Shown piece by piece: positions 4,034-24,805 of a DNA stretch of 32,000 nt (its first letter is position 1; each line of letters starts with the position of its first letter). Below the pieces are notes generated by a model. The model was not told the origin of the DNA. It ran no database searches and saw nothing but the letters and a program-made list of their open reading frames with translations. Both the position numbers and the translations under genes were made by a program. Location of the stretch: NCBI GenBank assembly GCA_021650915.1, contig CP091279.1, positions 2,040,001 through 2,072,000 on the forward strand, read 5' to 3'. Origin of the DNA: Candidatus Brocadia sp. Its GTDB lineage: Bacteria; Planctomycetota; Brocadiia; Brocadiales; Brocadiaceae.

Positions 4034-4646
4034 GTATTTCTTTTCCGACTCGTTCGGGTTTGGATCAACGGAAATTGGAAGCAAACTAACACCAATTGCA
4101 TCAAGCCATGAGTGCCCCCTGTTTTTTTTAAAAGAGAAAAAGAGGAACGGCGACTTTTTAATATTGCAAAACATTAACCCTTTTGTATAATCAAAAAGTT
4201 GTAACCATTCTTTTGACAACGTATTTTATATGGTAATCTTTTTTGGAGTTTAACCTATGATCTGGAAAAACTGCACGTCATTTCCTTACGGGTGAGTGCA
4301 CTTACCGAAGTGGCGGCGCCATTTCCAGGTTAAGTGGATAAGGTATAGACTCTTAAAGGATACCCGTTAGCACCTTCCCGAAAAAATGCAAGCAGCAGTT
4401 CTCTCTTGCAAGGTAGTTCATCATCCAATAAGAAATCCTATCCTTCATTCATTCATTTTCGTTCCATCTTTCCAGGAAAAGATGCCGTCCCTTCGTCCAA
4501 TAGTTGATTGGATAATTTGTTTCATTGAGGCACGGATTCCCGCAGATATACGCGGACTTCTGTTTGCGCAGGCTAAAGCCATGCGGCTACATGCGTAGTT
4601 GCTTTGGACAACTCAATTCAAGATTTTTTACTGGAGGATGTAATCT

Positions 4647-10972: not shown

Positions 10973-12905
10973 GCTAACCCGACTTTCGCAATTCGAGGGG
11001 TATACAACCCGCTGAGCCAGGAAAATCAAGGGGTCATGTAAAAAGGTCGGCACTACAGGCCGACCTGTCCGGATGCGTAAACCTTGGGCGGCGGTTGTTC
11101 AGGAAGCGCCAATCCCAACTGTGCCAAAAGGAGGGCAACATCCTTCTCCGGCTGGGTATAACGGCTCATGACAATATGACGGCCATCCGTAGTCGGTAAA
11201 TGAACGTCTATCATTTGAATGCACGACAGTTTTTCCAAAATCGCTTCAGACGTCAGCCCTCCGGCCCTCCCCCGCGCAAGATTGCGCAGTGTCGTGTGGA
11301 GACAAAAAGCCAAAAAGGAAACAAAGATATGGGCTTCAATTCTCCGTTCCAATTGATGCCATAGGGGGCGGACGGAAAGAGACCCCTTCAAGTCCTTAAA
11401 TGCCTGTTCAATCCGCGTCAACAGCAAATAATTTTCCCAGACGGTTTCTGGCGCGGCGACCTGCATGTTGGAACGAAGCAAATAACGCCCCTCGCGCCGA
11501 TACGCCTGCCTCAGGCGTTCCCGATCCAAACTGAACCGGAACGTATTCTCATTGACCGGTTCCTGCGGTTTGGGAATGGAGATCGTGACCAGTCTGTAGT
11601 CTCGTCCGGCTTCTTTCTTTAACGCGCCAATATGCATGAGCAGGTCATCGCGCGTGAGGGCTTTTCGATTGCGAAGTTCGCGCAGACCCATCCACAAACG
11701 TCTGAGTCTGCGCCTACGCATGGCACGCTCCTTAGACACCCGGTCATGGCTTTCCACGTAAACGTAAAACTCCGATTCCTGCCGAAGAACTTTCACGCGG
11801 ACGCTCTCCCTCGCCCGCATCCAGGTTTGTTCGAGTAGCGGTTTTTCTACTCTCGTCAAATGCCCCTTCGGAGTCCCAACCAAATAATCAATCCCGCGCT
11901 CACGCATCTTTTCCAACATCTCCTCCGTTGGAATACCGCGATCCATAAGCCAGGTGCGCCGGAATTTCCCATACCGCTTTTCAATCCGATCCAGAAATTC
12001 CTCCGGCGTTGCGGTGTCTCTGGTATTGCCCGGATACACTTCGTAGGCCACGGGAAATCCTTCCGGCGTTAACACCAACGCCACTACCACCTGCACGCAA
12101 TCCGAACGTTTGTCCCGGCTATATCCAAACCGTTTCTTACTCCCCGATCCAGTCGGAGGTGGGTCACTTTCAAAATACGTACTCGTCAAATCATACAGCA
12201 GTACATCGTACTTCGCCCCAAAGAGCTTGCCCCACTTCTCCTTTAAATAGGCAAACAGCTCGTCCCGATGCTCAAGCAACAAATCCAAACAACGATACGC
12301 CTTGTCCTTCTGCGCCAGGGAATAATCCTCTCCCAGCAGATCGCCTATTGCGCTGCGCACGTACCACTCACGGTGAAAACGAAATTCGCTTCCCGGATCG
12401 ATCAACCGGTAACAGACAAGCGCCTTCAGCATATTCAACCAGCTTGCTCCCCACTCCCGTGGATGGCGCAGCTCTATTTTGTCCAACCTCACCCGAACTG
12501 TCTCACCATCCGGTATCGGCATGGCTTCCCGGTCATCCGGAAACAATGCCAGTTGTCTTGGTTTCGGTTCTTTACCCGACACCGCCTCTATCGTCCGAAT
12601 CCACCCAGCCCGTTGATTGTCATTGAGTTCTCCCAAATAGAGAACCTGCCGCTGCACCACCCTTCTTCCGGTAACCCGGCGGTTCTCTACCACACTCCAA
12701 TACCGGTGGGTTTTCCCATCCTTCGTTCGTGTCTTTTCCCGGAGAAACATGCGAGCATTTTCGCACTTCCTCCTGCATGCGTCAAGAGGGTAGGTCGGCA
12801 CTACAAGCCGTTTTTAAAATTCACCCCTTGAATATCACGGGTTTCCTGGCGACTCTTGCCCAAAAATAAACTTTTTTGGGCGCGAATTGCGAAAGTCGGG
12901 CTAAC
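10973..12905 (-). mobile_element. IS4/IS1634-type insertion sequence (about 1.93 kb, apparently intact)
   Basis: Terminal inverted repeats share an 18-bp identical core CCCGACTTTCGCAATTCG (10978-10995, inverted at 12883-12900) with a partly matching extension. Subterminal inverted similarity is also present (gccaggaaa...caaggggt...taaaaa). A single long transposase ORF lies inside. No clear target-site duplication was seen. Confidence 0.85.
11053..12750 (-). CDS. DDE transposase, IS4/IS1634 type
   Basis: 565 aa from the ATG at 12750. The N-terminus MFLREKTRTKDGKTHRYWSVVENRRV...VLYLGELN is the characteristic start of this transposase group. The track ORF begins 17 codons earlier at a GTG. Confidence 0.9.
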   Translation of the reverse strand: MFLREKTRTKDGKTHRYWSVVENRRVTGRRVVQRQVLYLGELNDNQRAGWIRTIEAVSGKEPKPRQLALFPDDREAMPIPDGETVRVRLDKIELRHPREWGASWLNMLKALVCYRLIDPGSEFRFHREWYVRSAIGDLLGEDYSLAQKDKAYRCLDLLLEHRDELFAYLKEKWGKLFGAKYDVLLYDLTSTYFESDPPPTGSGSKKRFGYSRDKRSDCVQVVVALVLTPEGFPVAYEVYPGNTRDTATPEEFLDRIEKRYGKFRRTWLMDRGIPTEEMLEKMRERGIDYLVGTPKGHLTRVEKPLLEQTWMRARESVRVKVLRQESEFYVYVESHDRVSKERAMRRRRLRRLWMGLRELRNRKALTRDDLLMHIGALKKEAGRDYRLVTISIPKPQEPVNENTFRFSLDRERLRQAYRREGRYLLRSNMQVAAPETVWENYLLLTRIEQAFKDLKGSLSVRPLWHQLERRIEAHIFVSFLAFCLHTTLRNLARGRAGGLTSEAILEKLSCIQMIDVHLPTTDGRHIVMSRYTQPEKDVALLLAQLGLALPEQPPPKVYASGQVGL

Positions 12906-18144: not shown

Positions 18145-19200
18145 TTATTCGCTGGGAAGACAATTAACATATAGGTTGTTCGTTACCGCATCATTCACCA
18201 TAGAAACCACCCAAGCAGCCAATGATGTAGGTTTGTAGAGCAGGTAATTTGCCCTGATGTATTTACCTGCGTCAAGCAAATCTTTCGTCCCTAGTTTTGT
18301 GCAATCAGACGTATCCCACTCCTGCCCATGGGCATTAGTCCAACTAGCAATGCGAACCTCAACCCATATAACGGTACGCCCTTCACTCACCGCGGTGTTA
18401 ATTTTATCCCTGATCTCCTGAACTGCACCCACTCTCTTGTCGCACCAATCTTCACGAATCGTACCGTACTGCACATCGTAGAAACCGCCCATACCTTTCA
18501 CGTCGTTTGCAAACCTTGCCATCACATTATCCCGGTAGTTTTGATCAATCGCATCATCTCCGTCTCCGTGTCCTACCAGAAGAACGATTTCGTTTGACGG
18601 ATCTGTGCTGAATTCCTGCGCCCTCTCTAAAAGCACATTGGAAATATCCGGATGATAATCAATCGCATTGGTAGCAATATACTGAATATCGCTAAAGCTA
18701 CGGAATCGCCTGTGTATAGCGCCCATGTGATTGCAGAAATCATTCTGCTCATTGTATTCACCCGGACATTCAACCGTTTCATCAAGATAGTTAGCCTTGC
18801 TTGGTTCACCCTCAACCTCACAACCGATACTCCACTTGAGCACGTCGACTGTGCTGGAATCTGTATTCAGATACAACGGGACGACAACAATCTTATCCAC
18901 ACCTTCAGCCTCCAGACGACGAATGGCTTCATCTTCCGTTTGCCACATTTTATAAGTCATCATATCCATCACCATATGCAAACCACTGTCTACCTGATAG
19001 TCAGGCAGGCGATTTTTCACCTCATCAACAAGACTGAAAAAATTAGGATTTTGACTGAAATACCCATGACCAATTATTAAGACGCCAATCTTTGAATCAC
19101 TCTCGGCCATTGTCCTATGAGATGAAAAGGCGCCGATACTAAAAATTGCGAGCAAGAAGAAAACCCACGACAAGCATTTCTTTTTTTTCATTAATCTCAT
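18145..19200 (-). CDS. secreted class II chelatase-fold (CbiX/CbiK/SirB-like) protein, tentative
   Basis: 351 aa with AAAGGAG upstream and signal peptide MRLMKKKKCLSWVFFLLAIFSIGAFS. Two repeated half-domains start GVLIIGHG and IVLLVGHG, with VDKIVVVPLYL after the first, as in two-lobed CbiX/CbiK chelatases. Confidence 0.45.
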   Translation of the reverse strand: MRLMKKKKCLSWVFFLLAIFSIGAFSSHRTMAESDSKIGVLIIGHGYFSQNPNFFSLVDEVKNRLPDYQVDSGLHMVMDMMTYKMWQTEDEAIRRLEAEGVDKIVVVPLYLNTDSSTVDVLKWSIGCEVEGEPSKANYLDETVECPGEYNEQNDFCNHMGAIHRRFRSFSDIQYIATNAIDYHPDISNVLLERAQEFSTDPSNEIVLLVGHGDGDDAIDQNYRDNVMARFANDVKGMGGFYDVQYGTIREDWCDKRVGAVQEIRDKINTAVSEGRTVIWVEVRIASWTNAHGQEWDTSDCTKLGTKDLLDAGKYIRANYLLYKPTSLAAWVVSMVNDAVTNNLYVNCLPSE

Positions 19201-19436
19201 ATAATCTCCTTTAAATTACTGTCATAATACTTTTTATTAGATGCTAAAAAATATTTATTCTGTCTTGATTCCACAACGTCCTGTTATCACCTCCTTATCG
19301 GTACTGCAAAACGGACAGAAACTTACCTGTCTCTCCGGAACATTATGCACCCATTTTTGCCTCTTCTCTCAATGCACTCACCCCCCTTCCTCAACCCATA
19401 AACGTGTTTTTACGCCAACGGCTGTAAAAACAAAAA

Positions 19437-19522
19437 AAGCCCAACGAAAGAGGATTTCTGTTCTTCCGCCTTAGTCCCTGTGGATGTAACAGCTATACAA
19501 ATTAGCCGGTCGGCTGTTATCC
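19437..19522. repeat. hairpin unit 1 (paralog of the unit at 19684-19766)
   Basis: agcccaacgaaagagg...tccctgt followed by a hairpin: gga-tg-taacagc / loop tatacaaattagccggtcg / gctgtta-tcc (19482-19522). The loop and 5' flank are conserved with unit 2, and the stem differs by compensatory changes. Confidence 0.5.
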
Positions 19523-19646
19523 ACACCAATCTCACATGAAAAATTACGTGCTATACGACTTTCAATAGTGTCGTGACAATACGCGCCTTGCCGCTACAAA
19601 TGCGGCCTAAAGTTTCTTGCACAATCTACCTCCCTTCGGGTTCTTA

Positions 19647-19675
19647 TTGACATTCATATATGAATTCTTTATAAT
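19647..19675 (+). promoter_or_regulatory. perfect consensus sigma70 promoter
   Basis: TTGACA (19647-19652), exactly 17 nt, TATAAT (19670-19675). There is no protein-coding ORF downstream on this strand. Confidence 0.6.
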
Positions 19676-19681
19676 TTTTTC

Positions 19682-19776
19682 AAGGCCCGGCAAAGAGGTA
19701 AAAAAACCCCCTTGTCTTGGTCCCGGGGATTAATAACTGTACTTTAGCCGGTCGGTTATTAATCCCTTCTTTTATT
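19682..19776 (+). ncRNA. candidate small RNA (about 95 nt) ending in an intrinsic-terminator-like hairpin
   Basis: The predicted TSS is about 7 nt after the consensus -10. A 12-bp perfect stem gggattaataac / gttattaatccc (19726-19766) carries a 17-nt loop tgtactttagccggtcg. It is followed by the T-rich tract ttcttttatt (19767-19776). Confidence 0.4.
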
Positions 19777-19816
19777 CCCTGTTTCTTTCAACGTCTTTTT
19801 TGCCTTCACACCTATC

Positions 19817-20134
19817 TTATTTCAACACAAGTGGCAACCCCGCCTTTCTTAATTGGCTCTGACATTCCTTCATTTTTTGATATATTGACGCCCATGATCT
19901 CTTTGCATACAAAATGGGAATATCTTTATTTTCCGCCGATTTCTTTATCTTGTATGCCAGATTATGATTCACAAAGTCGCACAACATGATGATAAAATCT
20001 ATCGCTTCCGGGATTTCGTCACGGATCTTTTGTCCACTCCTACCCGTTATATGCCGTACATCGGTAACATCGATTTTATTCAGTTCTTTCGGAATACTTC
20101 CTAAATGGTCACCGCCTACGATAAGCACCGACAT
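19817..20134 (-). CDS. DUF2325-domain protein
   Basis: 105 aa with AGGAGGAG upstream. MSVLIVGGDHLG...HITGR...DFIIMLCDFVNHNLAYKIKKSA...PILYAKRS follows the DUF2325 pattern. Confidence 0.75.
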   Translation of the reverse strand: MSVLIVGGDHLGSIPKELNKIDVTDVRHITGRSGQKIRDEIPEAIDFIIMLCDFVNHNLAYKIKKSAENKDIPILYAKRSWASIYQKMKECQSQLRKAGLPLVLK

Positions 20135-20186: not shown

Positions 20187-20215
20187 AATATATAAACAAA
20201 GATATAAAATGTCAA
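20187..20215 (-). promoter_or_regulatory. near-consensus sigma70 promoter for the DUF2325 gene
   Basis: The minus strand reads TTGACA (complement of 20210-20215), 17 nt, TATATT (complement of 20187-20192). It lies about 50 nt upstream of the ATG at 20134. Confidence 0.5.
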
Positions 20216-20552: not shown

Positions 20553-20818
20553 TTATGAGACCCTTAATATAAGCAAAATATGTCCTACAAGGACACCAAT
20601 AAGAAGGAGGCAGAAGTCAAACAGAAAGGGGCAAATCTTTAGTATTGACAAACCTACCTCAACTCTTTGGATCATCTGAGAAAGATGCTTGTCGCCTTTC
20701 AGTCTTTCCCGTAAGCGCTTTCTCCCCTGGCTCACGGTACTAAAGCCGTCCCCCCCATTATTTCTCATATCGCAGTTCCGCTAAGTCTGCCAACCCGATA
20801 GAACAAGTCCATCGCCAT
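20553..20818 (-). pseudogene. frameshifted copy of the small DnaA_C-like HTH gene
   Basis: It starts with the same ATGGCGATGGAC as the 22755 gene, but the frame hits a stop after about 17 codons (MAMDLFYRVGRLSGTAI*). The homologous C-terminal part ([29 protein letters not shown]) continues in another frame and runs past the original stop. Confidence 0.6.
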
Positions 20819-20939
20819 TTGCCTTATTATACCCCGGTCCTTTTTTATTTCATCAAAACTTTTTTTCGTCTATTTGCAGAGCGTAGCAAAATGGTCTGCT
20901 ATTCCAAAATCAGATCAGATCAGACACAAATTATTTGTC
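20621..20939. repeat. 320-bp direct repeat, copy 1 (decayed)
   Basis: Aligns along its length with 22561-22881. I counted 50/60 identities over 20641-20700 vs 22580-22639. It contains the frameshifted copy of the small HTH gene and its promoter region. Confidence 0.8.
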
Positions 20940-21145
20940 ATGAATAAAGATTTTTCCCCTTTTTGCTTTTGTTTATAATCACAAATCAAGGTGCGGCCAC
21001 GTCCTCCCATTCTTGTCGGGAGGGCTTCACACCTCATCATCAGCACAATGGTAGCATGCCTCCTTAGGGTACTGATGGGAATACATCAGGTATAATCAGG
21101 AAGATAACTCCTTGTTATACAATCAATTATGCGGCCTCGGGTCGC

Positions 21146-22448: not shown

Positions 22449-22569
22449 ACCCTTTGTTAGATACCCTTTATCCTCTTTTTTATTAAAGCAGGATTTCTCC
22501 TGCCATGAATTACAGCAAGGACTATTATCTTTTCTTTTTCAAAAAGAACAGAAGGGGTCACAGAAGGGG

Positions 22570-24805
<2,236 letters not shown>

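Follow-up and report, generated by a model that had tools for sequence, protein, structure and literature searches.

Gene content of the locus and distribution of the hairpin units

The window analysed here, a 32,000-nucleotide stretch of a Candidatus Brocadia sp. genome (GenBank assembly GCA_021650915.1, contig CP091279.1, positions 2,040,001 to 2,072,000 of the forward strand), contains two paralogous hairpin units in the intergenic region between a gene for a secreted CbiX-like (chelatase-like) protein and a DUF2325 gene, both located on the minus strand (Table 1). Unit 1 is referred to as B and unit 2 as A; a third paralogue type, C, is absent from the window and occurs in some other species. 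The two units had been noticed at 19437-19522 and 19684-19766 in a reading of the letters alone (the sequence-only reading), and positions as well as shared blocks were found as described there. It appears quite possible, if short of probable, that the locus constitutes a cluster, specific to Brocadiaceae, of small structured RNAs that are paralogous to one another and encoded on opposite strands.

Both units share the blocks GCCC..AAAGAGG and GTCCC and the loop TTAGCCGGTCGG; within the 32 kb, exactly two occurrences were counted for this 12-mer and likewise for the 8-mer AGCCGGTC. A covariance model of the units, as proposed in the sequence-only reading, was built from 23 homologous units and placed B at 19432-19529 (84.7 bits) and A at 19678-19771 (95.9 bits). 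These are its only two matches in the window, and the homologues are confined to loci of Brocadia and Jettenia. A scan of 185,579 species genomes with the three shared blocks likewise returned Brocadia and Jettenia, with one or two matches per genome. This pattern is strict, and the Kuenenia and Scalindua genomes lay outside the covariance-model scan, so that diverged homologues are possible there. An additional match in Pelotomaculum (L025; labels of this form denote homologous loci or contigs from other genomes that were compared with the window) was not accepted by the covariance model and was dismissed as chance. Viral contigs gave no matches to the units. In a metagenome scan for the B/C form, 3 of 16 matches were true loci, and the other 13, which failed the covariance model, were due to chance.

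Through a search for GACCGGC-loop hairpins and subsequently the covariance model, as many as three paralogues in tandem were detected in a genome, sharing one DNA orientation. Over approximately 200 kb, the model found two or three clustered copies per locus and none elsewhere; overall, the copy number is one to three per genome, always clustered at a single locus. Because of these few clustered copies and the exactly two matches in the window, the units represent a single-locus gene family rather than a dispersed repeat. No curated Rfam family covered the units at the gathering threshold, be it in the window or at the orthologous loci, as a check suggested along with the original description has now established. 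With E-values of up to 10, the region 19200-20000 yielded chance hairpin matches far below threshold (plastid psbA 3′ UTR [untranslated region] and miRNA models). At the orthologous loci, matches to cyclic di-GMP-I (c-di-GMP-I) riboswitches were found beside the units and none over them.

The order of the genes around A varies between species (L011 and L023 compared with the window); in Brocadia AMX1 it is CbiX-like, GEVED, DUF2325, A, B, C.

Helices and covariation

Base pairing was counted in 27 distinct homologous sequences for 22 pairs, with the 3′ partners slid by 1-3 columns and 500 shuffles serving as controls. Standard pairs were formed in 89.4% of the cells compared to 42-65% in the slid controls, both sides had changed in 17 of the 22 pairs, and none of the 500 shuffles reached the observed pairing values. 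Judged by these alignments, the helices P1 and P2 are real and the units are under selection for structure. This agrees with the interpretation originally given to the compensatory differences between the stems of the two window units (TAACAGC/GCTGTTA versus TTAATAAC/GTTATTAA).

Between the types, the P1 stems are unrelated in sequence (e.g., TTAATAAC/GTTATTAA, GATAACAGC/GCTGTTATC, TTTAACCGT/ACGGTTAGA, GTTGTCGGC/GCCGACAAC, and GAGGTTGTCAGC/GCTGACAATCTC). Despite this change of the stems, the loop core GACCGGC(U), the GGGAC linker, CCUCUUU, and GGGC are fixed across the family. The stem differences are thus best seen as the result of an old paralogy within a family of three types, A, B, and C, and not merely as a difference between two local copies. 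A pseudoknot between CCGGC of the P1 loop and GYYGG of the tail would be possible on the strand assigned to each unit. Since the tail bases involved are the same as those closing P2 and the loop is invariant, the pseudoknot and the P2 pairing are indistinguishable.

Unit A encodes a predicted small RNA on the plus strand

The promoter in front of A matches the sigma-70 consensus at all 12 positions. An exact TTGACA/TATAAT promoter is expected 0.008 times per window with a spacer of 17 nt and 0.024 times with spacers of 16-18 nt, and it occurred in 1 of 300 and 7 of 300 dinucleotide shuffles, respectively; the earlier statement that such a promoter is improbable by chance therefore holds. Among 12 Brocadia and Jettenia lineages, the TTGACA box is invariant and the spacer is 17 nt long, its sequence being unrelated between species. 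The −10 box is present as TATAAT, TACAAT, TAGAAT, TAAAAT, or TATACT. In the window, the spacer is filled by a perfect 14-bp palindrome, ATTCATATATGAAT (19652-19665), which is not kept in other species. Apart from this palindrome, neither a Fur box nor any other known operator was found in the spacer.

The predicted RNA starts at a conserved AAGGCC, which is located 6-7 nt past the −10 box in every A lineage. Together with its promoter, A is the best-conserved part of the intergenic region (conservation 0.86-0.97 versus 0.1-0.5 in the flanking spacer). The RNA from 19680 to 19780 folds with −34.1 kcal/mol (z = −3.5), and folding is better on the plus strand in all 10 lineages compared (z = −2.7 to −5.5). 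The 5′ hairpin is weak and, on the plus strand, interrupted by one or two A·C mismatches. All substitutions found in the P1 stem of the orthologues appear as G·U pairs on the plus strand, where the minus strand would have A·C mismatches (13 versus 0 cells), and the same applies to L049. The 12-bp hairpin followed by TTCTTTTATT, with which the unit had been said to end, was located as terminator hairpin P1 and its U-rich tail (Table 1).

No conserved open reading frame (ORF) was found in A. A single frame of 11 codons with a TTG start is shifted by a 1-nt insertion in L022 and L026, and the small-peptide reading was dropped for this reason. Taken together, the description of unit 2 as a non-coding plus-strand transcript of about 95 nt, driven by a promoter and ended by a terminator, withstood the comparison, which provided strong evidence for this prediction. 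According to this sequence evidence, A is very probably a real small RNA (sRNA) gene. The transcript was also correctly described as pointing antisense toward the 3′ end of the minus-strand DUF2325 gene; this convergence recurs in L020, L023, L027, and L028. In Jettenia, the A module is located in a different gene context. Several contigs (L008-L010, L019, and L031) start within the A hairpin, and the A terminator looks like a rearrangement or assembly break point.

Unit B appears to point to the minus strand

The sequence-only reading had implicitly treated unit 1 as a second copy of the same plus-strand RNA, which is not supported in view of the pairing on the minus strand, a GGGC-U7 end, and minus-strand promoters in five lineages. 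On the plus strand, unit 1 has neither a promoter nor a U-run, and its 5′ helix contains three or four A·C mismatches. Read on the minus strand, this helix is completely paired with the help of G·U, and the unit ends with GGGC-UUUUUUU. In 12 of 13 B/C units, the minus strand had the better minimum free energy. The numbers of minus-only G·U versus A·C cells were 44 versus 15 for P2 of B, 6 versus 1 for P1 of C, and 9 versus 4 for P2 of C. One P2 pair of B changes from G-C in the window to G·U in L020 and to A-U in L027 and L028. Across five species of the window clade, B is conserved at 0.82-0.84, compared to 0.1-0.5 in the unalignable spacer between the units. The case for unit 1 is built on homology and covariation rather than on stability, since its folding was unremarkable on both strands (z of about −1).

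The B orthologues in L022, L023, L024, and L049 are preceded by a near-consensus minus-strand promoter of the form TTGACA-N16-TATACT, TATATT, or TATAGT, and the orthologue in L033 by TTGACA-N17-TATATA. The B promoter precedes P1 by 20-30 nt, and in these five lineages it stands back to back with that of A. Based on this sequence evidence, B probably works on the minus strand; its transcription from that strand in the window genome itself is presumed. An operator-like palindrome (CTGAGnCTCAG or AATTGAGACTCAATT) is located just downstream of the −10 box of the B promoter in several loci (Table 1). In J. ecosi, the B promoter and the palindrome are kept, the B unit is missing, and a lipoprotein-like gene is found in its place.

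Table 1. Features of the hairpin locus (window coordinates unless a locus label is given)
Feature	Position	Strand	Details
Promoter of A	19647..19675	+	TTGACA 19647-19652, 17-nt spacer, TATAAT 19670-19675; 12/12 match
Predicted sRNA A	19682..19778	+	about 97 nt, start at conserved AAGGCC
5′ hairpin of A	19689..19716	+	GGCAAAGAGG, loop, CCCCCUUGUC; homologous to P2 of B/C
Terminator hairpin P1 of A	19726..19766	+	12-bp stem (19726-19737 with 19755-19766), 17-nt loop UGUACUUUAGCCGGUCG
Conserved A loop 8-mer AGCCGGUC	19746..19753	+	complement of B loop GACCGGCU; invariant in all A units
U-rich tail of A	19767..19776	+	UUCUUUUAUU; U5-U8 right after the stem in orthologues
Unit B	19432..19529	-	P1, GGGAC linker, P2, GGGC, U7 run
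P1 of B	19479..19525	-	UGUGGA-UAACAGC, 19-nt loop, GCUGUUA-ca-UCCACA; compensatory changes among orthologues and paralogues
B loop 8-mer GACCGGCU	19504..19511	-	11 nt (CGACCGGCUAA) complementary to the A loop in the window genome
P2 of B	19443..19470	-	GGCGGAAGA, loop, UCUUUCGUU; pairs on the minus strand alone
U7 run after GGGC, terminator-like 3′ end of B	19432..19438	-	U6-U7 in 14/14 B/C units examined
Candidate weak B promoter	19550..19579	-	TTGTCA 19579-19574, 18-nt spacer, TATAGC 19555-19550; read by eye, uncertain
B-promoter palindrome	L024 3885-3865	-	
B-promoter palindrome	L023 ~7085-7070	-	
B-promoter palindrome	L049 ~2425-2410	-	
B-promoter palindrome	L015 ~4565-4580	+	
DUF2325 gene	19817..20134	-	Pfam PF10087, E = 1.3e-15; A converges on its 3′ end
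Secreted CbiX-like (chelatase-like) gene	18145..19200	-	first gene downstream of B on the minus strand

Complementarity of A with B and C

Because the units are direct repeats that are read divergently, the predicted RNA A is antisense to the predicted RNAs B and C at every conserved block: loop to loop, GUCCC to GGGAC, CAAAGAGG to CCUCUUU, and GCCC to GGGC. In the window, the loop of A (UUAGCCGGUCG) matches the loop of B (CGACCGGCUAA) over 11 nt, and the match comprises 7-11 nt in all A-B/C pairs. The loop 8-mer is absent elsewhere in the window. The predicted full duplex of A with B or C reaches −77 to −102 kcal/mol (z = −6.7 to −12 relative to shuffles), whereas a same-sense control duplex reaches only −23 to −41 kcal/mol. 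The summed self-folds of the two RNAs, about −57 to −76 kcal/mol, are also weaker than the A:B/C duplex. When A, B, and their loops were compared with the −60..+30 regions of 26 window genes, nothing outstanding appeared (best value −43), and the start of the CbiX-like gene was among the worst.

The partners are separate paralogous copies, located 166-820 nt apart across the loci, and are neither cis-encoded nor overlapping. Promoters and terminators on opposite strands are clear in L022, L023, L024, L033, and L049, while the minus-strand promoter of B in the window is weak. As the predicted duplex exceeds both the self-folds and every translation-initiation region of the window, we tentatively favour the reading that A and B/C form a trans-encoded antisense pair, which would start pairing by a loop-loop kissing contact; this may well be the case, with the chances somewhat below even. 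Because unit 1 appears to point to the minus strand, the RNAs A and B are best seen as antisense partners and not as duplicates.

A would then act as a trans-encoded antisense RNA on B, and in other species additionally on its paralogue C. Pairing would begin as a kissing contact of the two large hairpin loops and would then zip toward P2. The fate of the B transcript could be changed either by degradation of the duplex or by interference with the P2/U-run terminator, resulting in read-through to the operon downstream. Mutual regulation of the two RNAs is quite possible, although we hold it with some reserve, as we infer both their meeting and the effect of pairing from the sequences. A more specific and rather speculative version, which we consider unlikely, would derive A from a duplicated leader or attenuator RNA that acquired a promoter on the opposite strand. 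A would in this case be a co-transcriptional terminator or antiterminator acting in trans on B and C and gating the operon of the chelatase-like, GEVED, and multihaem-cytochrome genes, with the c-di-GMP riboswitch being part of a multi-input leader in some lineages. It would kiss the P1 loop as this emerges, zip through GGGAC, and pre-empt the P2/U-run hairpin.

Several observations weigh against such a pair. The complementarity follows automatically from homology and opposite transcription. The stem sequence is invariant among the A units; since A does not vary, no A-B/C covariation is demonstrable as proof of intermolecular pairing. An RNA that binds a ligand or a protein would fit the strong conservation of loop and junction nucleotides equally well. 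For its 5′ hairpin, A shows better pairing on the minus strand (23 cells versus 4). The window version of the minus-strand B promoter (TTGTCA-N18-TATAGC) is poor, and the operator-like palindrome of other species is absent there. B alone is no more stable than shuffled sequence (z = −0.2 to −1.5), and 4-7 nt intervene between the base of P2 and its U-run, a less than ideal spacing for an intrinsic terminator.

Alternative explanations

The most serious competitor, although an unlikely one in our estimation, regards B and C as cis-acting attenuators, riboswitch-like or responsive to a protein, in a long operon leader, with A as an extra layer of control or irrelevant. Covarying stems combined with invariant loops and junctions (GACCGGCU, GGGAC, CCUCUUU, GGGC) are the usual signature of aptamer-like RNAs, and the units stand in tandem, each with a U-run end, upstream of protein genes. 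A single long 5′ UTR is further suggested by L023, in which a c-di-GMP-I riboswitch with a terminator is located approximately 25 nt upstream of C. In addition, a conserved segment of about 130 nt runs from the last unit up to the gene. These points call for some caution about the antisense pair. In the window, B ends approximately 230 nt upstream of the CbiX-like/GEVED/cytochrome operon, and no convincing sigma-70 promoter for the CbiX-like gene, and no obvious separate one, was found between B and the ATG. The downstream gene, however, is not constant: most species have a CbiX-like gene in this place, L023 (and apparently also L049) a DUF1559 prepilin-like gene, and L022 a different ORF of 263 amino acids. 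The distance from the U-run to the start codon ranges from 165 to 490 nt, the upper value (approximately) being that of the L022 ORF, and about 900 nt of repeats separate B and C in L049. Neither does an Rfam family match the units, and cis-attenuation would leave unexplained why a conserved, promoter-driven antisense paralogue accompanies them in every species.

The poor promoter of B is also what a decaying relic of a B gene would show, with A alone being functional in the window genome. The loss of the operator palindrome in the window clade, the low thermodynamic stability of B, and J. ecosi, which lost B entirely yet kept its promoter, fit such an erosion. It is nevertheless improbable, given that B is conserved at 0.82-0.84 in five species of the window clade next to unalignable spacer, that its loop 8-mer is intact, and that compensatory and G·U-mediated changes in P1 and P2 are found within this clade. 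Even less probable is that both units encode sRNA paralogues read from the plus strand and sharing one loop seed, unit 1 being transcribed from an unrecognised promoter or by read-through. They do share the DNA orientation and the blocks, and tandem same-strand sRNA paralogues are common in bacteria. On the plus strand, however, unit 1 lacks a promoter and a U-run after the hairpin, it has the three or four A·C mismatches in its 5′ helix, and the A-run in front of it is the U-run of the minus strand; the B orthologues of five lineages moreover carry strong promoters on the opposite strand. The transposon or PATE (palindrome-associated transposable element) origin considered in the sequence-only reading can be extended to hairpin ends or relics of any mobile element (IS200/IS605 insertion sequences, repetitive extragenic palindromic [REP] sequences or PATEs, miniature inverted-repeat transposable elements [MITEs]) and to double-stranded DNA sites of a regulator. 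The units superficially resemble hairpin-forming repeats, and a DDE transposase gene (11053-12801), MITE-like repeats, and group II intron debris are present in the window. The number of one to three copies at one clustered locus, the restriction to Brocadia and Jettenia, the absence from viral contigs, and neighbours that are DUF2325 and CbiX-like genes rather than a Y1 transposase make this origin very improbable. The conservation of promoter, start site, and terminator is what would be expected of a gene, the asymmetry in G·U pairs depends on the strand, and the stem arms covary instead of keeping a half-site sequence as an operator would.

Comparison with known systems

Mechanistically the nearest counterparts, kissing-loop antisense pairs such as CopA/CopT of plasmid R1 and RNAI/RNAII of ColE1, as well as the antisense attenuation systems of pT181, pIP501, and pAMbeta1, are cis-encoded and perfectly complementary. 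The locus resembles all of these in having two small structured RNAs that are (here predicted to be) read from opposite strands, and recognition would likewise involve complementary G+C-rich sequences in the hairpin loops of A and B. The target B also carries a hairpin and a U-run, the formation of which could be altered by pairing, and in predicted stability the A:B/C duplex surpasses the two self-folds. In contrast to these systems, A and B are separate paralogous copies about 240 nt apart, of which the conserved blocks alone match and the stems are non-complementary. Furthermore, the locus is chromosomal and does not control plasmid copy number, and one antisense RNA would serve up to two targets.

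Back-to-back promoters and a short direct repeat that gives the divergent transcripts partial complementarity are also found in divergent type I toxin-antitoxin loci (tisB/istR-1, shoB/ohsC, zorO/orzO). Unlike these, the A/B locus has no toxin ORF: neither a small hydrophobic toxin ORF nor any conserved ORF was found in A, B, or C, and short frames in A and B are not conserved. The complementarity spans the whole unit, since the partners are homologous RNAs. With sRNA sponges (AgvB and AsxR in enterohaemorrhagic Escherichia coli, SroC-GcvB, RosA-RoxS), the locus has in common that the main predicted partner is another non-coding RNA; known sponges, in contrast, are not reversed paralogues of their targets and pair via a short seed instead of several blocks. 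Homologous sRNA genes in one intergenic region with conserved single-stranded motifs and diverged stems are known from PrrF1/PrrF2, Qrr1-5, and OmrA/OmrB. Those are same-sense and act redundantly on mRNAs, whereas one paralogue would have switched strand here. The c-di-GMP-I aptamer and terminator preceding C in L023, and the tandem units with U-run ends, recall the riboswitch-controlled non-coding RNAs EutX/Rli55 and SreA, as well as tandem riboswitches. In contrast to these, the window contains no riboswitch and the units match no Rfam family.

A literature search for sRNAs of Brocadia, Kuenenia, or anammox bacteria in general found neither these nor any other regulatory RNA described, and we know of neither a pure culture nor genetics for anammox bacteria. 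The locus offers a sharply defined and readily probed RNA candidate, for which both ends (5′ and 3′) are predicted exactly, the promoter matches the consensus, and 12 orthologues are available. We filed unit A as a new lineage-specific sRNA family and the locus as a novel version of trans-antisense RNA pairs. If the opposite-strand reading is true, the duplication of a structured RNA combined with a promoter strand flip would be a simple route to a trans-acting antisense regulator, and the pair would be characterised by block-wise instead of perfect complementarity. If unit 2 alone is expressed, the locus would simply represent a new lineage-specific sRNA family. A link to the secreted chelatase-like/GEVED/cytochrome cluster, and to the c-di-GMP riboswitches in relatives, would tie RNA regulation to metal or haem handling and to surface biology.

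Neighbouring genes and further features

DUF2325 has neither a solved structure nor a name in NCBIfam, and no functional clue was obtained. About 50 nt upstream of its start codon, an 11/12 promoter match (TTGACA-N17-TATATT) is located at 20187-20215 on the minus strand. The CbiX-like protein (351 amino acids) shares 100% identity with one from Candidatus Brocadia sp. UTAMX2 and has homologues in Brocadia and Jettenia alone.

The conserved segment of about 130 nt past the last unit (19280-19412 on the minus strand in the window) contains a covarying hairpin (AUCAGGC/GCCUGAU in relatives), followed by GGAGAAGGGGGGUGAU and then by AAGGAGGUG. It travels with the RNA cluster even if the downstream gene is a different one (L023, L049) and may be a further structured leader or RNA.

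The c-di-GMP-I riboswitches of the relatives are located at 6569-6685 in L023 and at 2829-2976 in L049, both on the minus strand (RF03167, 59.7 bits, and RF01051, 46.4 bits), each with a hairpin and a U-run. The one in L023 is on the same strand as unit C. The one in L049 lies approximately 135 nt upstream of A in minus orientation, and read-through would be antisense to A there. In L022 (349-1717; Brocadia sp. DTUAMX2), and apparently also in B. pituitae, the cluster is found directly downstream of two ORFs that, judged from sequence, resemble precorrin methyltransferases of cobalamin synthesis. Together with the chelatase-like gene elsewhere, this suggests a loose association of the cluster with tetrapyrrole or metal genes.

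Elsewhere in the window, a fragment of group II intron domains (D1-D4; 21003-21090 on the minus strand, 54.3 bits) is the sole Rfam match at the gathering threshold. A direct repeat of about 320 nt (20621-20939 and 22560-22881; 83-90% identity, 1.94 kb apart) flanks L-PSP, DUF2442, and DUF4160 genes. MITE-like inverted repeat pairs, the arms of which are 102 nt apart, are located at 747-773/876-902 and 29115-29138/29241-29264, and their motif AATCCCGAAGGGATGTCATGAT is also found in L015, in L022, and at the end of contig L024.

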